A stretch of DNA of 64,000 nt from Macrostomum lignano (Eukaryota). The stretch lies in assembly GCA_002269645.1 (NCBI GenBank), contig NIVC01000845.1:310001-374000 (forward strand). Direction: 5' to 3'. Positions 2,051 through 26,786 of the stretch are shown in pieces (the stretch's first letter is position 1; every line of letters starts with the position of its first letter). A program made the position numbers and the translations under genes. The notes under the pieces were generated by a model. That model ran no database searches, was not told where the DNA came from, and saw only the letters and a list, made by a program, of their open reading frames with translations.

Positions 2051-2887
2051 ACTACTAAGGGATTCCGTATGGCGCGATTTTGGAGGTGAGGTGGGTGTCA
2101 ACCCTCCTCGCCTCTCATTGGCTGGCGCCCCGATCACTAGGTGATCGATACCCGTATCGATATCGGCGCTCGGCGCGCGCGCGCCGCAGGCCGCGTCCAG
2201 CCGCAGGCGACCGATCCCCAGCCGCAGGCACCTCCGAGCCCACCGCACCGATATGTACCCCGATATGTACATAGGCGCACCCTCCCGAGCCGTAGGCGCC
2301 CATGCCGCAGACGCCCATGCCGCAGACGCCCATGCCGCAGGCACCCCGAGTGTACACTCTACCGAGCCGCAGGCACCCCGAGTGTACACTCTACCGATAT
2401 GTACACTCTACCACTCTCCCGATATGTAGTCAACGATATTAGGCTAGTGAAAACTACTTATAGTAGGTGAAATTGAGTATATTTACATAAAAATGTAGAT
2501 AAAACATATTGGTAGGTGAATAATGACGCATATTGCATATTAAAATGTACATATTGGAGCATATGAGCAGCAAAAACACACAATGTAGGTGTATGGGCAG
2601 AAATAGACAAAGCAGGTACTGTAGGCGCTACATAGGTGGAAATACACACAGCAGGTTTACAAAGTGTACTTTCGATACATATCGGATTAATGTATAAAGC
2701 AGGTTTACAAGGCATGCATAAGGTGTAGTTGTATAATACAGGCACGCATGTATAATCAGATTATAGGCAAACGCCCAGGTGCAACAGACGCGTAAATAAT
2801 GTCGCACCGACTAAAGAGTAAATATTGTCTAACCCGCAGGTGCATAAAAATTTTAACCAAAAGCGGTTCGGGGAAATCCCAAAAGGG
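2051..2887 (+). repeat. Left terminal inverted repeat (~837 bp)
   Basis: Reverse complement of 10540-11430. Essentially identical except for a variable GC-rich segment (~2190-2290) and a few mismatches near the inner end. Confidence 0.92.
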
Positions 2888-2896
2888 TGGTTCACG

Positions 2897-2928
2897 ACCT
2901 AATGACCCGATATACTTTCAACACAATT
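2897..2928 (+). repeat. 32-bp direct repeat just inside the left TIR (partner at 10450-10481)
   Basis: ACCTAATGACCCGATATACTTTCAACACAATT vs ACCTAATGACTCGAAATACTTTCAACGCAATT; 29/32 identical, same orientation. Confidence 0.8.
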
Positions 2929-3482
2929 AAACCCAATAGTGACGCAGGGGCCGGAAAAGTCTACAGCCCCCAGCCAGGAATCGAGCCTGGGTCACCCTGT
3001 TTTATACCGCCAGGGTTACCCGCTCGGCCATTAACCTCCCGGGGTCAGAGTCTCATTATTGTCTAAAATAGATGAGCAAAAGGGAGGTTTCGCCGCCCTA
3101 TGATGTGGAGACTTATTATTATTACAACGTTATTGAACGCATCAACATCTTTTAACGTAAATGTACCCACAAGTGGGCTAGAAAAATGGACGTATTTCGA
3201 TTGCGCTATCAGTACGCTAATCAGCGCAGCAAGTTTATGTCAGGAGTTCTACTCCAAGAGGCGGACCGCTGGGCCACAAACCGCCCCGAGGGAATAGGTG
3301 TCAAATGGGAGTTTTAACACTTGAGGGGATCCCGCTCAATGTACAGTGGAGGTGCCAAATGAGTAAGGACCCCTAAGTACAGTGCGGGCGTAAAACCATT
3401 TTTCAACCCCAAGAGTCAAGGGATCCCAAGTGGGCACATAGGGGAATCCCAGGCGTAAAAAAGATAGATCCTTATCTTTCAC

Positions 3483-6400
3483 TCACTCACGAAAGCCATA
3501 CGGACGGCTGGCGGCCCCATACACCCTCTTAGTCATTACGCGCTGGAAAGTCTTGTCCATCTCGAGGGTCCGGATTGTACAGCTAGCCTTATCGCGCCTG
3601 AACTGGGCCTGGGGCAGGCGTACAGTCCCGCCGTGACGCAGAATTTCCTGCAGCTCGTCCTCGCGCTCGGAAATCTCGGGTGTGACTCTGATGCCCTTGC
3701 ACTTGAGCACCGAGTACAGCGACCCGTCAGGCTTCTCCACCACGTACCGGTAGAGCTTGGGGCCTCCCGTGGTGAACTGTACCATGCGGCAGCCAGCAGG
3801 TACCTCGTCAGTCCACTGCCCCAAACTCGAACCGCCCGGAGGCTCGTACTCGCCCGGAGAGCAGCGGTATACGACCCTGGGAGGAGGAGAAGGATAAAGT
3901 GTTAAGGGGAGAAAGAGAGACAGAGACAGTTGAAAAAATTACTCACGAATCAGTATCGGCGTAAATGACGCGGGTTCCTAGACCCTCCAGAGCCTCGTAG
4001 AGTCGCAGCCGGGCGTGGGAGGTGGTGAAAACGCCAATAGGTACATTAGCGTACTTGAACGCCCGCTCGCCAGCACCGCCAAATCGGGGCTTGTACTCGA
4101 GCATCATGAAGCTCTCCCCAATTGGCTCGCACGACTTGACCTTGATCGAGGGGTCGGTCAGGCGCTGCAGCCACGCCTCGTAGCTGTCCACAATCTCTGT
4201 GGAGGTCAGGTCGTCGCGCTGGCAGAATTTGCCCCAGAGCCTGCAGGGAAAAATAAATTTTTTTTGTAAGTAGAAAAACACGGCCCCCACTGCAAGTAGA
4301 AAAAACTTACGAGTTTAGAAAAATCTTGGCCACAAAGCGCAAGCCAGGATTCTCCTCCACCTTTTCCAGCCGGACGCCTTCGCGCTCGAAAAAGCTGGCC
4401 ATGTAGGCAGCCTTGGCGTCCTCAGCCATCCCCGGCGAACCGCTAGACTCGGCTTTGAGCTTCAAAAAAGTGTTTACATAATCTGCAAACAGGCCCGTGC
4501 GAGTCTCGGTCCAATAGGCCAGGGCATGAACTGACTGCAGCTTGTAACCCAACTGCAGGGCTTTGTGGAGCTCTGGGGTCGACCACGTGCCGCGGAGCAT
4601 TCTCTCAGCGTCAGTGTGTGTACACTCGCTGCTGCACTGGTCTCCATGCAGACGCGGCAGAGGCCGAAAACCAGCTTCTTGTTAATCTTGGCGGGCAGTA
4701 GCGGGATGTGGAGATTGGTTGGCGGCAGAATCGACACCTCGGCGATGCCAAAATACCGGGCCAGCTGCAGCTCATCCAGTAGATGAGGCTCGGGGTGGTG
4801 TACCGGGTGCCCGACCGGGTACTTGTCAAACTTGTTGACAGTCGGGTAGAGCGACACCTAGGGGATAAGGATAATAGAGAATTAGAGGATAAGATAAACT
4901 CAAACGCATGTCAACTGTGTGTGTACAAGTGTACAAACTTACCACATCCCGATAGCGCAGCTCTACAGTCTCGGTGGCCTCGGCGTGCGGGACAAAAGCC
5001 TCGGTACGGCCGCCAAACAGGGCATCCTCCAGGTGAATAGGCTGCTGGACTGGCGCTCCCTCGTCCTGATAGTCGTGCTCCCACAGAACACGCACATTGT
5101 ATGCAGTGGAGAGCAACCGGGTGAAGCGCTCAGTCTCCTCATAAATCGCCCGCATTGGCTGGTTCTTGAGCGGGTGCAGCACGTCGCCGTTGGGGAAGCA
5201 CTTGGGACAGCCATGGAAGAAACAGCCATGAAACTGCAGCACTGTCCTGGTCTCTGGGTCGAAGCCGTCGACCTTACGGCCCATGGCGAAAGCCTCGCCG
5301 CCAGAATCGGCTGTCCGCAACCGGCCGCCAAACTCGGTTGCATTTAAATGTGCCAGCCAGCACCGCGCCTTGTGCGACTGTACATCGGACCGGCGGGAAA
5401 TCACCCCAAGAGTGTTGGGCTCCATAAACTTGGTGGTGAATACCGACATGGCCAAGCCCGCAATGGTGTTGGATTGAACAAATGCGTCCAGTCCGCAAAT
5501 GTCCTTAATCAGGCGGGTGTACTTTAGACAGCCTTCCCGCAAAATTAACGTGTCCTGCAGGCAGTAGTCCAGGTACTCCTTATTGAAATTAAACACCTGT
5601 CCCTCCTGCTTGGCCAGCCAGTCTGCGATGGAGTCATGCTGCTTGTTTTTCTTTCCTCCATACATATCAATTGAGCAGTAGGGTCCCACGTACCCCCAAT
5701 TTTCCGGCTGGTTAAACACGTGCGGGAAATCTCCTTTGGTCAGTTGGGTGCCCAAACCAAGCGCCTTTGGGAATTGCGCCAGACCAATAGGGATGAAATT
5801 GAGGCTGTCCTTGAAGGTGATCTTGTCGCACTTCATATACATTAGGCGGCTGTTCTGGAAGATCACTTGCGGCTTCTTCTTGGCCAGTCCGTTGAGTAGG
5901 GCGCCGAGCAGGAGGAATGCGTCATACGCAGAGCCATTGTGCGCAATAGCAATTGCCCCCTGCTTGAACACACTAGTCAGCCAGCAGTAAAAGGCATCGA
6001 TAGAGTGCGGCCCGACAGATACAAACTCTCGCATCCCACAGGCACAGTCATTGTGCGAGACACAGCTCGTGAAATCGAGCGCCAAATCGCGTCCCGCAAT
6101 GCAATTGGCTGAGCTGTGTAGTCCCCGCACACGCTGCAGCGGGCCTGGGGAAGAGTTTGGGACACGCCTCGCAGGAGGTGGCAGCCGTAACCAAGTGTAC
6201 CCGGTGCTGCTTGCCAGAGTCCACGTACGTCTCGAAATCATAGTAAACATACGGGGCGCTAGACTCTTTGGCTTTGGGCGGGGTGACAAAGCACTCGTGG
6301 GTGGCAGTTTCGTCGTACTGCTTGCAGACTGGACACTTGGCGTAACCACACTGATGCTCAGGGGGCTGGCCTACTTTTAGTTCTTCTAGATAGCCACACG

Positions 6401-8319
6401 TGCCGCAAACGTGGACCGAATCACAGCGCGATCTGCCGGCCTTATTCTTGCGCTTGTGATTTTCTAGGCACTGAGCATTATAGCAATTTAGCCCGCAATC
6501 ATGGCATCTTACATATGCGCGGTTTGCCTTACAGTTGGAGCCCGGAGTCTTGCATGTGCTGCAGGCATCAGCGCACTTGTGCTTCTCATTATTGCAGTCG
6601 TGGCCATCTCGCACTTGTCGCAGTAGTGGTGGCTGCCGAAAAACGCAGGCAGCTTGGTGACCACATTAAAGTGCTGCTCGACCAGGTGTAGGTGCAGAAT
6701 CTCGGTGCCCGGCAGGTTGAAGATGCACCTGTTGGCCTCCTCTGCGCGGTACACGCGTACACCAAAATCGTGCCCTGGATGCAGCCGGTTCAGGGCACGG
6801 ATCGCTTCGGGCAGTGCATCCACCCCGAAAGGACCAGCCTGCGAGACGGTTTGAAGAGTCTGTGTGGAGGGTAAAATATTTCTTTTAGTATTCCCTGATA
6901 CTGTGTAAAAAATCTTATCAGAAAATATATCTTTTAGTATTCCACGATACTGTGTAAAAATTCTTATCAGAAAATATATCTTTTAGTATTCCATGATACT
7001 GTGTAAAAATTCTTATCAGAAAATATATCTTTTAGTATTCCACGATACTGTGTAAAAATTCTTATCAGAAAAATACTAGAAACTTACCGTGTAGAGGCCA
7101 GCTTCGATTTGTAGCTCAGCCACCAGCTTAGTCTGCGTGGGCGAATTGGCCTTGATTGTGTGCCACACCCGCTTGGTGATGGACTTGGCCACGAATTGCA
7201 GGTAGGCGCAGGCCACGACCAGAGCGCGCAGCAGGCATCTCTTGTCCGAGTTGGTGATGCGGACATAGTGCTTGGAGAAGGCGTGCCGCTCTTCTAGATG
7301 CTTGTTCTCGAGAGCACATCCACCTCGAGGCACCCAGGCCTTTAGCAACCGGATAGAAAAGTTGCCCGTCAGGACAGTGGCATCCGACTGCACAATCTTG
7401 TTGATGTGCTTAAACAACAATTCAGCCGTCATGCGGGATGCACGCACCGGGGGAGTGTGGGCCGCTTTGAGCATATTGTCGCTCTCGAATTTCGCGGCCA
7501 TAAAGTCATCACCAGCCAAATCTTGCTTGAAAACTTCGAGCATGTCAGCAAACACCTCCCGCAAATCTTCGGTGTTGGTAATATGCACCACATACTCGAC
7601 ACCCTTTGCCCTAAACTTGGGCAGGTCACGCTGATTATCCAGCCGGGCCGTAAAACCTGCATGGGGGAATGGGGGAGTGTGAGTCAGCCAGGGTCTGTGT
7701 GGGAAATGGGGGGCTGGATAACTCACCCGGTCCGGTAACAGATTCCGGCTGTGTTGGCGGGACAAACGCGTCTGAAAAAACACAAGGAGATAAAAAACCA
7801 GAAGAATCTGTCATTTTCCTGGCCCCAGCGTGTTTCCCCGCCCTAGCCCCAGCAATTTCTTAACAGAGTTTACTCTGCTGTCCCCGCAGCAACTCTCTGC
7901 AATTTCTTATCTGCACCCCCGCTGCAGCCTGTCGCAGCAGTCTTTGTTTACTCACCCCTGCAACTCTCTGTCGCAGCAATTTGCACCCCAGCTGCAGCCT
8001 GTCTGGACAACACCCCCCTAGCAGCAATTTCTTATCAGCACACACCCGGCTGAAACTTGTCTAGCCCTCCCCTGCAACTCTCTGTTACAGACCCTGCCGC
8101 AGCACCCCACCCTAGCAACTCCAGTCTAGACCCCTGCAGCTGTCGCAGCAGTCTTTGTTGTTTACTCTGCGTCCCACAGACCCTGCAGCTGCTGCTGCTG
8201 CTCAGCCCCTACCCCACCCTAGCAACTACAGTCTAGACAGAAATTAATTAAAACTTACCATAAAGACGTTGCCTCTTGTCAGCCAGGAAAGCAGTTGCTG
8301 CGGCGCTGCGTTTAGCCAT
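3483..8319 (-). CDS. polB: Protein-primed family-B DNA polymerase (pPolB), 7 exons: 8319-8259, 7771-7727, 7656-7088, 6859-4943, 4857-4311, 4240-3947, 3876-3483; about 1,276 aa after correcting apparent single-base frameshifts
   Basis: Motifs: ExoI YDFET, ExoII AHNGSAYD, ExoIII YCLQD, FGGRTEAF, motif A YRDV^VSLYP, CTH-ER-LRGTW, motif B KIFLNS^LWGKF, motif C YADTDS^VVY, C-terminal RPYGF. All six introns have GT(A/G)AGT donors and pyrimidine-rich YAG acceptors, and their phases restore the frame. Frameshifts at ~6605, ~6080-6160 and ~4645. Confidence 0.93.
3877..3946 (-). other. pPolB intron 6 (70 bp, phase 2) in the Ser codon of catalytic motif C (DTDS)
   Basis: GAT ACT GAT TC|GTGAGT...CTCCTCCCAG|G GTC GTA TAC gives DTDSVVY. 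Confidence 0.92.
4241..4310 (-). other. pPolB intron 5 (70 bp, phase 2) in the Ser codon of motif B (KxxxNSxWGK)
   Basis: CTA AAC TC|GTAAGT...TTTCCCTGCAG|G CTC TGG GGC AAA gives LNSLWGK. Confidence 0.92.
4858..4942 (-). other. pPolB intron 4 (85 bp, phase 0) in motif A (DVVSLYP)
   Basis: CGG GAT GTG|GTAAGT...ATCCCCTAG|GTG TCG CTC TAC CCG gives RDVVSLYP. Confidence 0.92.
6860..7087 (-). other. pPolB intron 3 (228 bp, phase 0), containing a 49-bp tandem repeat
   Basis: TAC ACG|GTAAGT...CCACACAG|ACT CTT CAA joins AGLYT to TLQTVSQAGPFGVDALPE in frame. Confidence 0.85.
6874..7075. repeat. 49-bp tandem repeat, ~4 copies (CTTTTAGTATTCCACGATACTGTGTAAAAAT/ATCTTATCAGAAAATATAT)
   Basis: Unit starts at 6882, 6931, 6980 and 7029. 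Confidence 0.9.
7657..7726 (-). other. pPolB intron 2 (70 bp, phase 1)
   Basis: GGA CCG G|GTGAGT...CCCATGCAG|GT TTT ACG gives GPGFT. Confidence 0.78.
7772..8258 (-). other. pPolB intron 1 (487 bp, phase 1) with degenerate GCAGC/CAACTCTCTG repeats
   Basis: CTT TAT G|GTAAGT...TTTTTTCAG|AC GCG TTT joins MAKRSAAATAFLADKRQRLY-D to AFVPPTQ; phase is compatible with the 45-bp exon 2. Confidence 0.72.
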
Positions 8320-8557
8320 TTTGCAAACAGAGAGCGTGAGAGAGCGGAGAGAGAAGGATTTATCTCTCTACCCTGGCTCTGGGGGTCTGTATATATACTA
8401 AAAAATCTGCTCAGCTCGCCTGTTATTGGATAAATCGCCAAAAACCAACCAAAATCATCAAAAATCACCCCAAAATCATCACCCACCCCACCCTCCACCG
8501 GGGGTATATAAGGCGCTGCACGGCTGTCAGAGAGCTCTCTGCTGCTGCTGCTAAATC
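8320..8557. promoter_or_regulatory. Putative bidirectional promoter between pPolB and the PC4-like gene, with two TATA-like boxes
   Basis: TATATATA at 8390-8397 (~70 bp upstream of the pPolB ATG, context CAAAATG) and TATATAAG at 8505-8512 (~50 bp upstream of the ORF 8558 ATG). Confidence 0.55.
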
Positions 8558-9091
8558 ATGTCTTCTATCTCTCTATACGAAAACTTTGTGGCGCGGAAGC
8601 CCACATTTGAAACTGAACACAACTTGATTGAAATTCGGCGTCTCTACACCAACGAGGCCGGAGTGTGGAAGGACGGCTTCCCTGCAATCTACTTGGCCGA
8701 GCCAGAGTGGAAGAAGCTCGAAGCTGCGCGCCCTGACCTGGAGGCTGCTGCCCGCCTTCACGTGAACAAGCGGGTCCTGTTGGGCAATTTCAAGGCAGTT
8801 GAAGCTTCGCGAGGGAGGATCCGTTTGCTGCGCAATTGGCTCAATCAGGACCCAAAGTTTAATTGGCGCTACACGATCGAATTCACGCCTGAACTGTGGC
8901 GCCGGATGTTTGCCGCCCGTTTGGACAAGCTCTTCAAGCCGGCACCTGAGGCACCCCCTCCAGCCAAGCGAGTCAAGACAGACACGCCTCCGGTAGCCGG
9001 GACTGAGGTGGATGTTCTTCAGCTCATGGGTCTCAAACCCTACCAATCTCCACCCTGGGAAAATCTGTTTAACGAGGGTTGGGACTGCTAG
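8558..9091 (+). CDS. PC4-like ssDNA-binding protein (possibly two tandem PC4-type repeats), 177 aa, basic NLS-like PAKRVK
   Basis: LIEIRRLYTNEAGVWKDGFPAIYLAEPEWKKL fits the PC4 pattern (IDIRxxY...GxxKPxxxGIxLxxxxWxxL). A second weaker repeat is RIRLLRNW...TIEFTPELWRRM. Recognised by eye, no HMM run. Confidence 0.62.
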   Translation: MSSISLYENFVARKPTFETEHNLIEIRRLYTNEAGVWKDGFPAIYLAEPEWKKLEAARPDLEAAARLHVNKRVLLGNFKAVEASRGRIRLLRNWLNQDPKFNWRYTIEFTPELWRRMFAARLDKLFKPAPEAPPPAKRVKTDTPPVAGTEVDVLQLMGLKPYQSPPWENLFNEGWDC

Positions 9092-9207
9092 TTTCCTATT
9101 GGTTCGCACCGCCTCACTCGATCCGTCTATATAATTAGTGTTTCCCCCTCTCTCAGAGAGTCAAACCCTATCTCAGCTCTAATACTTTACTCTCTGTTGA
9201 TTCTAGC

Positions 9208-10222
9208 ATGTCCCGCCGAGCTCTATCCAACCTCTGGGATAATAATCGCCCGACTGAAGAGTTAACCAGCCTCGACGGGGATATCCCTGAACACATAGTT
9301 CCCCTAGGCACTGAAAACAACGGAAGTGATAATTGGGAGGCTGATCAATATCTAGCTTGGGCTATGTCCTATGATAGCGACACCGAGTCTGAAGTTTTTG
9401 ACCTCCCGCTGCTGGCTATCGGCGGGGTTGTGAACGGTGCCCCTGCTGCTACTGCCTCCGATTTGACTACCGCCTCAGCCGCCCTCTTTGACGTCTCTGT
9501 TGAGGAGCTGACCACAACCGGCCCTGCCTCTGCTGCGCCCGTCTCTGCTGCTGCCGCCTCTACTACGCCCGTCTCTGCTGCTGCTTCAACTACCTCCCAC
9601 CGGGCCTCAATATCATCAGCCGCTACGCTCCTTCTCTTCGACGACGAGGACGAGGATATGTCTGAGGAGATCGCCGTGGTTCGTGAGCGCTTTCCTCGCA
9701 TTGTGGCCTCATTTTTCCGCGGGGACATTGACTGGCTGAGGTCTCGGCATCCTGGCGGGCTGCCCTCCCAAGCTACCTTTGTCAGAGCCTTTAATCGGGT
9801 TCTTGATACTTTGGTTGCGAGGGGTGCCGGCCTACGGGAGGTGTTGGAGGCTGAGACTCTGCACCAGGACTGGTTGATGGGGCGCAATTCGTATGCCCCC
9901 GACTCTGAGGCGTACCTGGCCGGTCCGGGAGCGCGGCCAACTGCGTGGGATGAGCCCGTCGCATGGCCCTCCAACTGGGAGGAGCACCTTTCGTTGGTGC
10001 GCTATACAGCGTCTCTACGTCTGTGGCGGCTGGAGGACGATTTAGATTTGGTAAGATATTACATTATATACACAACTCATCTAATCATATACCTTGCATA
10101 TATTCTATCTACATTGACTGTTATAATTTCCACATTGCCAGTCATCCGACTACTGCTTCGAGAGCGTGGAGGAAGAGGCCGCGTACGAGACAGCCCTGAG
10201 GGAGCGTATGGAGATTGACTGA
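9208..10222 (+). CDS. Orphan acidic/Ala-rich protein of the element, 2 exons (9208-10050, 10142-10222), ~307 aa
   Basis: Long GC-rich ORF. AT-rich GTAAGA...TTGCCAG intron (10051-10141); splicing gives DDLDL|SSDYCFESVEEEAAYETALRERMEID*. No family recognised. Confidence 0.6.
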
Positions 10223-10539
10223 TAAGGTATTTCTCTTTGTACGCGGTTTGGGGAACCCAACACTGTACACTGGGTAGGTTAGAATGGGCGCTAGCTGGGG
10301 GCCTCTATGTGTGTATACACGGGGGTTAAAAGACCAATTCTGATAGCTCGCTCCTAGGGAGGAAATTGGCAGAGGGGCCGGCCCAAAAAACTGAAATGGG
10401 CTGGCCCCGGGCTCGAGTCCACCCACCTAAAATATGGAGGGTCATTACAACCTAATGACTCGAAATACTTTCAACGCAATTGTACCTATAAGAGGGTTAG
10501 GGCGGCGGCGGCGGTGGCGAAAACGGGCGGCTAAAACCT

Positions 10540-11430
10540 CCCTTTTGGGATTTCCCCGAACCGCTTTTGTTTAATATTTATGCACCTGCGGGTTAGACAA
10601 TATTTACTCTTTAGTCGGTGCGACATTATTTACGCGTCTGTTGCACCTGGGCGTTTGCCTATAATCTGATTATACATGCGTGCCTGTATTATACAACTAC
10701 ACCTTATGCATGCCTTGTAAACCTGCTTTATACATTAATCCGATATGTATCGAAAGTACACTTTGTAAACCTGCTGTGTGTATTTCCACCTATGTAGCGC
10801 CTACAGTACCTGCTTTGTCTATTTCTGCCCATACACCTACATTGTGTGTTTTTGCTGCTCATATGCTCCAATATGTACATTTTAATATGCAATATGCGTC
10901 ATTATTCACCTACCAATATGTTTTATCTACATTTTTATGTAAATATACTCAATTTCACCTACTATAAGTAGTTTTCACTAGCCTAATATCGTTGACTACA
11001 TATCGGGAGAGTGGTAGAGTGTACATATCGGTAGAGTGTACACTCGGGGTGCCTGCGGCTCGGTAGAGTGTACACTCGGGGTGCCTGCGGCATGGGCGTC
11101 TGCGGCATGGGCGTCTGCGGCATGGGCGCCTACGGCTCGGGAGGGTGCGCCTGCGGCTCGGGAGGGTGTACATATCGGGGTACACATCGGTAGGGTGGGC
11201 ATACATATCGGTAGGTGCGCCTGCGGCTGGGGAGGGTCGCCGGTGGCTGGGGAGGGTCGCCTGCGGCTGGACGGCGCTTGGCGCCACGCGCCTGCGGCGC
11301 GCGCGCGCCGAGCGCCGATATCGATACGGGTATCGATCACCTAGTGATCGGGGCGCCAGCCAATGAGAGGCGAGGAGGGTTGACACCCACCTCACCTCCA
11401 AAATCGCGCCATACGGAATCCCTTAGTAGT
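10540..11430 (-). repeat. Right terminal inverted repeat (~891 bp)
   Basis: Reverse complement of the left TIR; the ORF track shows mirrored identical peptides (2458-2745 and 10680-10967). Confidence 0.92.
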
Positions 11431-14035
11431 CTCCTCTGACGAGAGCGACATTCGAGTTCGAGATGATGTGGTGTCTTATCTGTCCTTTTGCGATTCCCGT
11501 ATCGATGATGAGCCAAAAGTAGTTCTGCTGCATCACCAGTGACGCGTTTGCGTGATCAAGAATTGCGAAGACGTTAGCTGGTTCGGCCAGCACCAACATG
11601 TGGAACACCTTCTTCTTCAGAAGTCGAGTCATGTGAGCGTTGAGGTCGGTGACCAGAGCTCCGCTATTTGTGTCCACTTGGAATGTGAGCGAGCTGATTC
11701 CGTGTTTCGTAAACGAGTTTTGCAAGTCCTGCAACACCATGATACCTGAAAATCAGTTTAGTGAGCTTATATGAATATGAGCTATGTCAGATAATTTAGT
11801 ATCTGATTCTCATCATTGAGTACTCACTCTGCTTGCTGTCAAAGAATATGACGACCTCGGATGCAGACTTCGCAGCCATTGTCTTCACTGCAGCATTGAC
11901 CATGTGTAAGGGTTCGTGCATTCCGAAGACACTGTAGTCTGAAGTGAACCCGATTTTCATTTGGGCTTTTGAGATCAAGTACTCCTAGCTTAAGGACTGC
12001 ACAGACTTACCCGTTGACGAATATTGTTCTTTGCAGATGCCAGATGGAAGCGAGATGAGTGGCAGCTGCATCGTCTTTGTGGCTGCCGAAATCTGCATCA
12101 GTGTACTGCACTGACCGACGGCAATCACGCCTGATAGTCCAGTCTGCTCACACACTGTGGGTGGGCCATGCAGTTGGACAGGCAACAGTCAGACAGTAAA
12201 GACACATAATACAAGGCAGACTGGCTCACTTACTTGACTTGACGATTTGAGTAGCACTGCAGGAAGTGGCGTTGATCTCGACAAAGCTGATGCTGTGACC
12301 CGCCAACACCCGCCAGTTCGAGCTGACTCGGTGGCTGAACGCGTTGACAACGAGAGAGCGATTCACGGCGCCGTTCTCGACGACCACGGCCACTTTGAAG
12401 TTCAAGGACAGCGAATGCGTAATGCATTGCAGAAAAAACAGGGCAAAAGTTAACCAGGCCATGTCGGTTTCAAATAGGGATGAAAGAGTTTTTGTTGTTT
12501 TTTCTTGCAGTTGCGTCCGCATTCGGCACTCCTTTATACCACTCTGCTGTGATCTTTTTTTGTAATTGAAAAATTGATTAAGAAGATTTAGCATCTTAGC
12601 AACCGAACAACAACTTTCTCTATGAATTTTCTTCAATGTGCTTTGATCTTCTCTTTGGGTTAAATTTCTCCCTTCAAACTTGCAGATCGATGAACTTTAC
12701 TCAGTGAAGCTTTTCAGTTCAGGTTGCAGGGAGCACGAGAATGAAATTTTTGTTTAAGGCCGAGCATTCTTCACTCAGTATTTAATAGTTTCAGTTTTCA
12801 TTTTGTAACGCGATGCGTTTGGCGGAGCTCAGTTTGCCATTGGGAGCTTTGTTAGAGATGTCATGCAAGAGAAGCCGCATTCAGTTTGTCTAAGCTTTGA
12901 CGAGTATTGATTGAAACAGTCAAATGAAAATTTGTTCGCCGTCTCTTGTCAAGCACTTAATTTAAGTGAAAATTTGAGGAAATGTAATTCTAACATTCTA
13001 ACTGCTTGCTGTTCTATAAAGATTGAGGACTTGATGGACTATCGCTTGATTCAAGCGAACCGTGATCCAGCCACGTCTATTGTGTGATTTCAAGCCAATC
13101 GGACTGAGCCTTCATTTCATTGCTGTCTTCAACTCACCCACGTCTCTAAATCCTGTTCTGCTTCCCTTTCTCTACGAATGCACTTTTCTTTGTGTTTTTA
13201 CCTGTATTCTTGCATCCCTGCTTGGATTCAAAAAAATTTTTGCATCCATCTTGGTTGCCCTTGAGTAGGCGAGACGCCACCCTGGAGTGGACAGTGTCTG
13301 CTCAATGGGTAAAAGTTTTCATTCTCGATCATTATAGCGAGTAAATACGAGTATTGCAACGCAGATTGTACGGTAGTCTGCCGCTTGTGTTAGTATAAAA
13401 ATCGAACAGCACAACGAACAAAGATACTCCCTATACTTAGAATGTCTCTCGATGCTTGTAGCTCTTGTGACTTGGTAGACGTTGGAAGAACTTCTCCTAA
13501 ACAAAAACTTATACCAGAAAATTCCACTCAGTTTCCGGGGAACTTTATGGACCTAGCGAGGGCTTCATGCTTCAAGTGTTCATCAAATATGAATACCTTC
13601 AGAATCATTGTTGCTGCTTTTAAAGCATTTTAAGCAAAGCACAAAAAATCTAGCTAATAATATAAAAAAGGTCGGTTAGTAGCAGGGAGGCGACAGGATG
13701 AAGGCTCAATACAAAGCGACCCCGGAGCACGTGCCATTGCACACACAGGAATATGTACTAAGACCTAGAATCTTAGATTGCGTGGCAGCAGGTTTTGAAG
13801 CCCGGTCGAACCAAGGTAATTCCACGGCAACTGAACACCATGGTAGTTCCGATCGAACTGGGTTTTGGGACACCCCTCGTATATAAGTTAGAGAGAATTA
13901 TCATTACAAACATATTCGAATAACTTGAAAAACTAATAGCATAGACATTTTGAGGTCAATCTGAGAGATGCGAAGAAGGTCTATGGTAATAGCTATTCCC
14001 ATCCGACTTGCTAGGGTGGGCAGAAGCGTTTTTTT

Positions 14036-16281: not shown

Positions 16282-19200
16282 TTAGTAAAACAGGCAGTCA
16301 GCCGGTGTCCGATTCAGTGCCTTCGTCCAGGCCAGCTCGAACACTAAAATAAACAGGCCGATGACGTAGCAGGCGAGGGAGACAATGAAGCAGCCACCGA
16401 CCCCCTCCAAGTCGATCGGGTCGGCACTGGCTGATGAGCCCGTGGTGCAGACAGAGTCGCTAGACCAATACTTTTTGAATAGCTTGTCCATCACGCCGTT
16501 CTCTTGCATCTTCTCAAAACTGTGAATTGTTGTTCGAATTTAAACAGCTCCAGACGGTAATAGAAGTTATATGGGAGGTGTAAGGTTGTTATGGGTAGCT
16601 ACTCTCATTCTGTATTTCTGCTGCAGCTCGGAGCTGCTACCCAATAACAGGAGTGTGAACTGGAGCTCAGCTAAATTTTTTACTCACTAGAAGTCAAACA
16701 GCTCGGCAAAATAGGCGTCTCTGGGATAGGCAAAAGCAACGGTGGCCGTATTAAAAATCTCGTCAGCCATGTACACCTGACTGCAGTTGGCCCCGGCTGT
16801 GTACAATATGACAGTGTAGTCGGTTATGCAGGCCACTGGTTCGGTGAACACCTGCACAGTTTAGTAATCGGAATGTATCGATTCATTTCTGTAGAATTCA
16901 TTCTACTACGAGCGTATGTCTAATCCAGTTTAGTTCAGTTAGTGGGCCCAACGTATCGATCTTTCGAAACTTTATCGAAGTTGTCTAAGACAATAGACAG
17001 ACTCACCCGTTCCGCGCACTGTGGAATGCTGTCAGCGTCAATCATCTGATCAGCCACCTGTCTGTAAACGCCTGTTTTCGTAGACTGCAATAGGGTGTAG
17101 ATGTTTGTGCCAGCTGGGACCAGTGGTTTCAGAGCCGTCTGAGCCACCAAGTCGTCCAACGTTTTAATAGGAAATTTGGTCACGGTGATGGTGAGATGGG
17201 CCGTGAGATCGCCTGAAGGTGTCAGATCAGTTATTAAATCTTGGCTGCATGTGACTAATACATAGGCTTTTACTGCTTCTACTCAATTTTACTGTCTCAC
17301 CCGTGTAAGTTCCATAAATGATCACGGTGAACATCCACCAGAAGGCCAGCACAGCTCTTGGAGACATGGCAAACGGATAAAAGTCCTGACCCTGCTGCAT
17401 GAAGCTGCCAACTATACTCCAAATGTACTCCTGCAGCCAGATCTCATCAGCAATGGCGAACTCCAGTCTCAGGTTGTAGGCAGTGAATGGAGAGAAATAG
17501 GCCAGCACCCAGGTAACTGCGGCGGAGACAAAAATGGATGCCACGATGAGAATCCACACATCGTAGTTAAATGGAGTGAAGACGTTCCACAGTTTCGAAC
17601 CCGCGGGAGGTCGCGGCACCAGAATAGCGTTGGCCTCTTGGAAGAGAGCTCTTCCAAAGCCGATGTGAAACTCCCGCTCGCTGGTCTTTGTGAATGGCCC
17701 GGCTCCGAATTCCACCAACTGGAATTTATGGAATTAGCATCAAATTTAACTTCCGATTTTTGTTACTGTTCCGGCGTTTTTGGACGTACGCTCAAAATAA
17801 TATGAGTACCCTAAAAAGTATTGGCAGCTGAAGGCTTAGGTACTGGCTACCAGAGTTTTACATCCGCTTACTCCTTTCTGAATCTCGCCAACGCAGCCGG
17901 TGAAGTACTCGTTTCCCGGATGAAGGGCGCCCCACTGACCATCATCTGGAGCCTTCGCAACATACCTAAAAGCAAAAGCTTCATGATACATTCAGGTACG
18001 CCAATGATACGAAACAATTGCCGAACTTTAGAAAAAAAATACCTAAAATCGAGCTTCTCGCCAAGAATTTTCATAACATCTAGAAGCATTCCCCCAACTG
18101 TTACAGTCTTGTTTGGGTAGATGGATGCGTATGTCGTAAATGGAGGAATCTGAAATTATATTTTGGAACATTTAAATAGTTTCAATTGCACAGCTATCAA
18201 ACGATATGACAAAAATATTGTATGACAAACGTACATCGGGGCTGCATACAAGCAGGGTTCGATTCTTAAATCCCAGGAATGTGTTGGGGAACACGAGGCT
18301 CACGCCCTTCTCTCTGAACAAAACGCTTAGCGCTCCACTCTGGGTGTTGTGCATTCCCGACTGAATGAACTGAATAGGTGATGACAGTTTCTGGTTGAAG
18401 CTGCCCACCACTTCGATGCCCTGCGAGTCGAAGTGACCGGTGGTCGAGTTGAACGAGATCACTCCTCGGTTCGAGTTGTAGCCGGACATCTGTTATTACA
18501 TTTCGGTGGTTAGGAGAGTACGTCTGCATTCGATAGTAGGCGTAAAAAGCAACTCCGATTTTTAAAGCACTCAACTCACGCTTGTCAGCTTCGAATAGAC
18601 GGACGGCCCCGAGCTCCACACCTGCAGAGGATTGCAGGCAGCGTTGCTGACATTGAACGTCGACTCAGTGACCGCATCGTTCAGTGCCTTCGCCAGAGCC
18701 TCGACTGCATCAACGAATCGAGTGTCCAGTGTCTGCAATTGTCAGAATTTTCAGAATTTCAGCGTTGCAGTTTTCACATCGACCATTTTCATAGCTCGCA
18801 GCTATGCTCAACCGTTTCACTGCTCACTCGGATCCAGTCTGTGTCGCAGCTGTCGAACACGTCTCGCACAGGAGCGGAACATGATCCGGGAACGTTGATT
18901 CCCGTTGTGCCTCCTCTGACGAGAGCGACATTCGAGTTCGAGATGATGTGGTGTCTTATCTGTCCTTTTGCGATTCCCGTATCGATGATGAGCCAAAAGT
19001 AGTTCTGCTGCATCACCAGTGACGCGTTTGCGTGATCAAGAATTGCGAAGACGTTAGCTGGTTCGGCCAGCACCAACATGTGGAACACCTTCTTCTTCAG
19101 AAGTCGAGTCATGTGAGCGTTGAGGTCGGTGACCAGAGCTCCGCTATTTGTGTCCACTTGGAATGTGAGCGAGCTGATTCCGTGTTTCGTAAACGAGTTT

Positions 19201-19972
19201 TGCAAGTCTTGCAACACCATGATACCTGAAAATCAGTTTAGTGAGCTGATATGAATATGAGCTATGTCAGATAATTTAGTATCTGATTCTCATCATTGAG
19301 TACTCACGCTGCTTGCTGTCAAAGAATATGACGACCTCGGATGCAGACTTCGCAGCCATTGTCTTCACTGCAGCATTGACCATGTGTAAGGGATCGTGCA
19401 TTCCGAAGACACTGTAGTCTGAATTGAACCCGATTTTCATTAGGATTCGAATCGCATTCGTGATTTTTGATATCAAGTACTCCTAGGTTAAGGACTGCAC
19501 AGACTTACCCGTTGACGAATATTGTTCTTTGCAGATCCCAGATGGAAGCGAGATGAGTGGCAGCTGCATCGTCTTTGTGGCTGCCGAAATCTGCATCAGT
19601 GTACTGCACTGACCGACGGCAATCACGCCTGATAGTCCAGTCTGCTCACACACTGTGGGCGGGCCATGCAGTTGGACAGGCAACAGTCAGACAGTAAAGA
19701 CACATAATACAAGGCAGACTGGCTCACTTACTTGACTTGACGATTTGAGTAGCACTGCAGGAAGTGGCGTTGATCTCGACAAAGCTGATGCTGTGACCCG
19801 CCAACACCCGCCAGTTCGAGCTGACTCGGTGGCTGAACGCGTTGACAATGAGAGAGCGATTCACGGCCCCGTTGTTCTCGACGACCACGGCCACTTTGAA
19901 GTTCAAGGACAGCGAATGCGCAACACATTGCAGCAGGATAAAGTGCAGAAGAAATCGCATTACTCGATGCAT
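16282..19972 (-). CDS. Ionotropic glutamate receptor-like gene, copy B (multi-exon, apparently complete)
   Basis: Signal peptide MHRVMRFLLHFILLQC; ATD exons; S1 PFTKTSEREFHIGF; M1; pore SFMQQG; M3 TYTGDLTAHLT; S2; M4 GGCFIVSLACY; stop at 16282. Confidence 0.88.

Positions 19973-22953: not shown

Positions 22954-26786
<3,833 letters not shown>

Follow-up and report, generated by a model that had tools for sequence, protein, structure and literature searches.

The element and its genomic setting

The window, 64,000 nucleotides of contig NIVC01000845.1 of Macrostomum lignano, carries a 9.4-kb Polinton-derived element at positions 2051-11430. Its terminal inverted repeats (TIRs) of approximately 850 bp, located by inverted-repeat pairing, span 2051-2892 (plus strand, starting ACTACTA) and 10535-11430 (minus strand), and the 6-bp target site duplication (TSD) CTCCTC is present at 2045-2050 and again at 11431-11436. 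Other copies of the element each have their own 6-bp TSD. Both features agree with the definition of Polintons/Mavericks (TIRs and a TSD of 5-8 bp), the length falling below their 13-25 kb. No gene for integrase, capsid, packaging ATPase or protease was found within the element among the ORFs of the window or by a Pfam scan.

The insertion (2050/11431) disrupts one of three gene copies arranged in tandem, within a coding exon. The paralogues, at 18233-19954 and 22975-24696, are intact at the matching site. From a reading of the ORFs, the interrupted gene looks like an ionotropic glutamate receptor.

Two ORFs lie on the plus strand of the element. The first (8558-9091, 177 aa) likely encodes a PC4-like single-stranded DNA binding protein. 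It is a strong lead in the atlas and shares 31% identity (E 4e-9) with an ORF of a full Polinton of the host, which itself matches Pfam PC4 below the cut-off. The second (9208-10218, 336 aa), of low complexity, is dispensable and is missing in six of 20 close copies.

A DNA search that gave 98 candidates, of which 40 were scored, finds at least 40 close copies, and one exon of the polymerase gene has 105 matches in the genome, at 56-100% identity. The polymerase elements fall into two families, a first one of near-identical copies and a second one about 76% identical; among the top 40 matches the spacing of TIR pairs is mostly 8.7-9.7 kb. Integrase, capsid and ATPase genes are absent also from all five second-family elements with both ends. 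One palindromic derivative (L074, G000:C3085:5300-15299) contains two inverted partial polymerase genes that are 99.9% identical, and similar pairs occur on C4430 and C2274. Such derivatives arose perhaps from strand switching during replication.

The polymerase gene

The polymerase is a pPolB (Pfam PF03175) encoded on the minus strand in seven exons. Exon 1 (8259-8319) and intron 1 (7772-8258, GT..AG with a pyrimidine tract) are predicted only. The 45-nt exon 2 (7727-7771) is also predicted, a similar exon being present in the second family. Intron 2 (7657-7726, phase 1, GT..AG) lies outside the motifs and is at the same site in all three second-family copies examined. Exon 3 (7088-7656), from the ORF list, covers the N-terminal region. 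Intron 3 (6860-7087, phase 0) falls in a poorly conserved region and includes a short tandem repeat; loose ends of RNA-type contigs from two runs resume in exon 3, and the site is common to the second family.

Exon 4 (4943-6859) encodes a Cys-rich region, the exonuclease and an inserted nuclease-like domain that may be VSR-like, to judge from a resemblance in motifs; the insert gave no match in Pfam or the PDB. Jeong et al. distinguish a pPolB group in which a VSR nuclease domain lies between exonuclease and polymerase. No splice joint is listed within this 1.9-kb exon, in line with the earlier description of it as intron-free. Exon 5 (4311-4857, matched by PF03175) extends from motif A to motif B, exon 6 (3947-4240, from the sequence and genome matches) from motif B to motif C, and exon 7 (3483-3876, from the ORF list and spliced alignment) from beyond motif C to the stop codon.

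The three introns that separate these last four exons each interrupt a catalytic motif. Intron 4 (4858-4942, 85 nt, GTAAGT..TAG) is in phase 0 in motif A (DV|VSLYP), at the site GTG|GT. Intron 5 (4241-4310, 70 nt, GTAAGT..CAG) is in phase 2 within the Ser of motif B (KxxxNSxWGK, here NS-LWGK). Intron 6 (3877-3946, 70 nt, GTGAGT..CAG), also in phase 2, splits the last Ser of motif C (YxDTDS, here YADTDS). The Ser codons at the motif B and motif C sites are both TC|G. The coordinates, phases and motifs had been proposed from the sequence alone, together with the shared TC|G, and all were confirmed on the sequence. The same three introns also emerged, unaided, from a spliced alignment guided by a profile built on 27 homologues from outside the host. 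The intron set proposed then was incomplete: the three motif introns stand, and three additional introns upstream, outside the motifs, had been missed.

The window copy carries frame shifts near 4640 in exon 5 and near 6120-6140 and 6600 in exon 4. All four sequencing runs that we compared differ from the window at the frame shifts, at full depth in three places and in part at the fourth. The four frame shifts are probably assembly errors or copy damage since the runs read otherwise there.

Splicing and conservation of the motif introns

All three motif introns are skipped exactly, with GT..AG ends, in contigs of three of the four runs (three studies), whose RNA status is inferred as none is recorded as RNA; contigs were compared over 3100-6870. 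A single contig of 1,679 nt covers all three exon joints. The fourth and deepest run covers the sites and shows none of the three joints. A processed, intronless genomic copy as the source of the spliced contigs was considered and rejected: a spliced database model has 177 matches in the genome, and none of the 150 listed continues through the motifs without a break. The contigs are most likely the element's RNA.

The introns carry the marks of the U2 type, namely GT..AG ends, a GTRAGT donor and a pyrimidine-rich 3′ end. Their lengths of 85, 70 and 70 nt are not multiples of three, stops occur inside them and they are removed in the RNA-type contigs. An intein is excluded, as the insert is not an in-frame coding sequence and is removed at the RNA level. 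A group I or group II intron is likewise excluded by the length of 70-85 nt, too short for a ribozyme, and by the lack of any Rfam intron family at E up to 1. The longest stop-free frames are 23-28 aa, with no nested nuclease ORF, and no long version of a motif intron was seen in 41 host copies or 84 outgroup loci. The three motif introns are genuine major-spliceosome introns.

Of 41 copies examined, the site of intron 6 is kept in all 37 that were measurable, the gap of intron 5 in 39 of 39 and that of intron 4 in 37 of 37. Codon and phase are identical across measurable copies, down to 60-75% protein identity. Five of the 41 copies have a damaged splice site. A comparison of 20 close copies (a truncated one of 21 having been dropped) reveals purifying selection on the exons only: shared substitutions in exons fall at third, first and second codon positions in the ratio 101:12:4, and shared indels number 17 in 224 intron sites (0.076) versus six in 3,156 exon sites (0.002). 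The terminal GT and AG are retained in all 20. Between the two families the intron sequences are no longer alignable and the sites are unchanged, so the introns predate the divergence of the two families. Compared pairwise, the element's introns give three of 45 pairs at a shuffle p of 0.015-0.03, which is about chance, with the caveat that old introns would lose signal.

Placement of the introns and comparison with other polymerases

If six introns are placed uniformly, all three of the motifs A, B and C receive one with a probability of 2e-5. The probability that at least three of six fall at sites of such conservation, measured on 21 full-length homologous proteins, is 0.0005-0.012, depending on which of four window sizes is used. 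When the conservation test is confined to A and C and to the polymerase domain, it gives p 0.005-0.03. These tests were all framed after the data had been seen and, with that proviso, intron placement in this gene is non-random. Papers are cited here by accession for those parts of their text that were accessible. In PMC2814812 spliceosomal introns are described as lacking a preference for conserved sites, and inteins and group I introns as preferring them; the sequence-only reading, which regarded the targeting of conserved motifs as typical of the latter two, agrees with this.

Motifs A, B and C of the host DNA polymerases delta and alpha are unbroken, as is motif C of zeta, the motif seen in that enzyme. 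Intron transfer from host B-family polymerases is excluded on these grounds. Other pPolB families in the same genome, multi-copy and intronless, have open frames of 875-1478 aa in which the readable motifs are whole. At least three further intronless types are present (L236, L240, L261, L267-L272), and one intronless host type, which lies inside full Polintons, has an Endonuclease VII domain. Intact vertebrate Mavericks are intronless according to the accessible part of PMC8097293. The premise that pPolB genes are normally single ORFs holds for these and for the other host families. In a degraded copy of the pPolB type studied here, none of the motifs A, B and C drew an intron call.

The outgroup comprises 84 loci, the best 80 of 285 metagenome matches and four viral sequences, and is biased to intronless genes. 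In 80 of 84 the polymerase domain drew no intron call. Five calls were made from this set (L149, L171, L178, L160 and L185), of which only three look real. In the DNA of L149 and L171 the Gly of motif B, 8 nt past the host site, is interrupted by an intron with an in-frame stop. L178 has a probable intron before KxRGF, AT-rich with GT..AG ends and without a stop. The calls in L160 and L185 proved to be in-frame coding inserts and were discarded. Two outgroup intron sites, 907 and 1241, are only moderately conserved (ranks 0.2-0.8). The host sites in motifs A and C were not seen in any outgroup examined. These comparisons favour a gain of the motif introns over a default state of the host.

Recurrent interruption of motif B in relatives

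Length-limited searches for ORF fragments, in which the best 120 of 439 and the best 120 of 580 were taken, extend the comparison to relatives at the protein level. Among 119 new fragments from the search between motifs A and B, 40 break at the motif B Ser, reading LN-R-stop or LN-R followed by Tyr or other junk; Arg after LN is the read-through of AG|GT at this Ser. The LN-S-stop of the host occurs in two of the 119. A further 16 are interrupted at the Gly, three codons past the Ser, where an intron 8 nt further on than that of the host is seen at the DNA level in relatives, and ten start with junk three codons before motif A. Cluster members of the fragments show the same ends. In two fragments an F/L-rich insert of 22 residues is read through and the motif resumes as SFWGK or FWGK. 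The searches favoured finding breaks at the motifs because the fragment queries ended there; in a search without the length limit about 13 of 150 matches, counted by eye, begin with junk before xWGK. AG precedes the break in 40 of 42 Ser-site fragments, as against an AG-type Ser in ten of 71 DNA loci, the rows being related. The motif B Ser therefore appears to be a recurrent intron site in other Polinton-type pPolBs, as judged outside the host from protein ends only.

In viral contigs the DNA pattern of the Ser-site intron gave four matches, none in a pPolB, and viral scans using a fragment or the alignment gave zero and five loci. A pPolB fragment of the same type is present in three long contigs of a viral collection (L193-L195, L201-L203), and its alignment ends shortly past motif B.

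A tree of 88 rows needs at least ten changes in the state of the Ser site and rejects its confinement to one clade (p-AU 0.0003). This tree has 191 columns, long branches and unsettled bootstrap values, and gain and loss are indistinguishable on it. Near-identical rows were left out, as were protein-only rows without an intron, which may be spliced models, and four of 20 possible Gly-site fragments, which were ambiguous. A larger tree of 147 rows that includes the protein-only rows gives 19 changes. The sequence-only reading had counted common intron-rich relatives with randomly placed introns as evidence against its view. Introns do prove fairly common in relatives; their sites are not random but cluster in motif B.

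Probable partner elements

A Polinton-type integrase is encoded at about 150 other places in the genome. Some are full Polintons with different ends. Others are elements of 10-12 kb: ten of 12 that were fetched have integrase, capsid and ATPase, and none of the 12 has a pPolB. Where both ends were found, five of six have a 6-bp TSD. The capsid-like protein is assigned with very high confidence in the atlas, where a DJR-like family is recorded on 30% of members. There are two families of these integrase-capsid-ATPase elements without a polymerase, at G000:C150:69199-79699, G000:C175:235327-245769 and some 50 similar places. One such element has a Fic-domain ORF, and an ORF with a TATA-binding-protein domain (L242:6295-6942) lies in an element that encodes integrase and capsid and whose ends are of the AGTAGTAG type. 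Two loci of 7.6-8.7 kb (L287, L288) have partner-type ends and none of the core genes, and are probably non-autonomous derivatives.

Over the first 32 nt, the two polymerase families match the respective partner families at 25 and 27 positions and crosswise at 16-17. Another first-family copy matches its partner at only 19 of 32 and the window at 25. The 97 polymerase and 61 capsid places are never closer than 46 kb to each other. In gene content the two kinds of element complement each other and their ends are alike, as in a segmented (bipartite) virus, which suggests a likely two-part system of a polymerase element and an integrase-capsid partner. The polymerase element would supply replication, and the 10-12-kb partners integration and packaging. 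Alternatively, the full Polintons with other ends in the same genome could be the helpers.

Comparison with known systems

The element shares with Polintons/Mavericks (polintoviruses, adintoviruses) a PF03175 pPolB, long TIRs, a 6-bp TSD and a multi-copy state, and the closest non-host pPolBs are about 47% identical over exon 5; the contig of one of these also has an integrase and an ATPase. The element differs in its length of 9.4 kb, in ends that begin ACTAC and in the absence in cis of genes for integrase, capsid, ATPase and protease. Its polymerase is in seven exons whereas that of intact vertebrate Mavericks is intronless (PMC8097293). A literature search, which included few subscription papers, found no report of an intron-split animal pPolB or of a Macrostomum Polinton, and no description of a two-part Polinton.

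Inteins of B-family polymerases, like group I introns, insert in active-site motifs. Intein sites I and II lie in motifs A and B. Three alleles are described, site III being YGD|TDS (PMC549080); the intron in motif C of the element lies 8 nt downstream of it. In contrast to these insertions the introns of the element are GT-AG RNA introns of 70-85 nt with neither nuclease nor ribozyme. Group I introns are recorded in cryptophyte PLVs (PMC12220804).

Closer in kind are the introns (shintrons) of mirusviruses (PMC12768974), likewise spliceosomal and about 80 nt long, which interrupt core genes of a nuclear DNA virus and some of which have a target preference. Those introns are in morphogenesis genes of viruses that lack a polymerase and some encode nucleases, whereas those described here are in the polymerase and non-coding. 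Dinoflagellate introners (PMC12166617) are also spliceosomal introns within polinton-like proviruses, but are young, repeated and host-wide; the introns of the element are old, resemble one another in sequence no more than about chance, and are under selection in a spreading animal element.

Why are the introns in the motifs?

Several explanations should be considered. The one we favour, tentatively and a little short of thinking it probable, is that ordinary introns were gained at splice-ready codons of the motifs and then locked in. In motif B, the codons for the invariant Asn-Ser and Trp-Gly would supply ready exon ends (AAC AG| and TGG G|), and we infer that gains recur there for this reason. 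An element copied from DNA to DNA would seldom meet the cDNA route of exact intron loss, and deletions would purge introns from loops more readily than from motifs. Introns in motifs would be locked in because only exact removal leaves a working enzyme, an argument also made for the survival of inserts at conserved sites (PMC2814812). Similarity between elements at the DNA level probably peaks at the motifs, and intron spread by gene conversion may be promoted there. Some observations count against this account. The contexts of the host sites, TC|G at B and C and GTG|GT at A, are not the strong (A/C)AG|G, so a splice-ready gain would require codon changes after the event. Protosplice sites are, in the accessible text of PMC3488318, no more conserved than random sites. 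The loop-purging step is weakened because introns 2 and 3 persist in variable regions of both families. The modest conservation of the outgroup sites 907 and 1241 and the failure to see the host's A and C sites in the outgroups also weigh against it, as does the bias of the fragment searches towards the motifs.

A second explanation, possible but rather unlikely in our judgement, is a history of homing, in which nucleases borne by Polintons or introns cleaved the polymerase genes of rivals where the DNA is most conserved. According to its details, held with the same reserve, introns arose or arrived at the cut, conferred immunity and spread, the short introns being remains that have lost the nuclease. 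All three sites are in active-site motifs, as are those of PolB inteins (PMC549080), a placement unlike that of ordinary spliceosomal introns (PMC2814812). There are two separate sites in motif B, 8 nt apart, and the state of the Ser site is patchy on the tree. Spliceosomal introns of mirusviruses carry homing nucleases, VSR-like ones included (PMC12768974), inserted nuclease domains occur in Polinton pPolBs (PMC11161782), full Polintons of the host have an Endonuclease VII domain, and double-strand-break repair yields parallel intron gains in Daphnia (PMC4202315). The motif introns themselves, however, contain no nested ORF or structured RNA, no long version was seen in the 41 host copies and 84 outgroup loci, and the intron in motif C misses the intein site by 8 nt. 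The suggestion of the sequence-only reading that the introns are relics of selfish inserts may still be true, though their frames of 23-28 aa, the Rfam searches and the position in motif C give no direct sign of it.

The introns could also have separate origins. On this account, which we regard as unlikely, one old or hot-spot intron in motif B was inherited and repeatedly lost, and those in A and C are gains of the host lineage that fell in motifs largely by chance. Motif B is indeed the only site that recurs in the relatives examined, three of the six introns of the gene lie outside the motifs, the p of 0.005-0.03 for A and C alone is post hoc, and the tree is blind to gain versus loss. Against it, the 1.9-kb exon and the remainder of the polymerase domain are intron-free, and a second lineage has its own site in motif B and one just before motif A.

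More doubtful is a combined scenario that draws in the partner elements: a two-segment polintovirus, the segments of which integrate separately but retain matched ends, with motif introns that are footprints of nuclease conflict between Polintons and a motif B intron that, though an ordinary spliceosomal one, moves from one distant element to another like a homing intron.

Selected control, by which the introns make polymerase output depend on splicing in the host nucleus or let the transcript evade the silencing of intronless foreign genes, with motif splitting ensuring that unspliced RNA gives a dead enzyme, we consider improbable on both counts: unspliced introns in motifs B and C do place a stop right at the donor and introns are restricted to the polymerase, the integrase and capsid ORFs of the partners being unbroken, but any upstream frame-breaking intron acts alike, the genome also contains multi-copy pPolB families without introns, and the contigs, which cannot reveal levels, gave no sign of regulated retention. 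The safeguard proposed earlier fails to explain the position of the introns because any frame-breaking intron makes the protein dependent on splicing, and the three upstream introns would do likewise.

Implications

Two rules, that Polinton genes are intronless and that spliceosomal introns have no preference for conserved sites, both fail in this element, and with RNA support. The apparent recurrence at motif B can be counted and offers a case on which to test whether spliceosomal introns are gained in parallel, locked in or spread by homing. Polinton surveys demand an ORF of 900 aa and a linked integrase (10.1101/2023.08.22.554363, in the part accessible) and such filters would miss the element. 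Polinton diversity is then undercounted, because intron-split elements that lack an integrase escape selection by ORF length and integrase linkage. If the reading of the partner elements is true, a Polinton has been split into two complementary elements, an arrangement for which we found no prior description.
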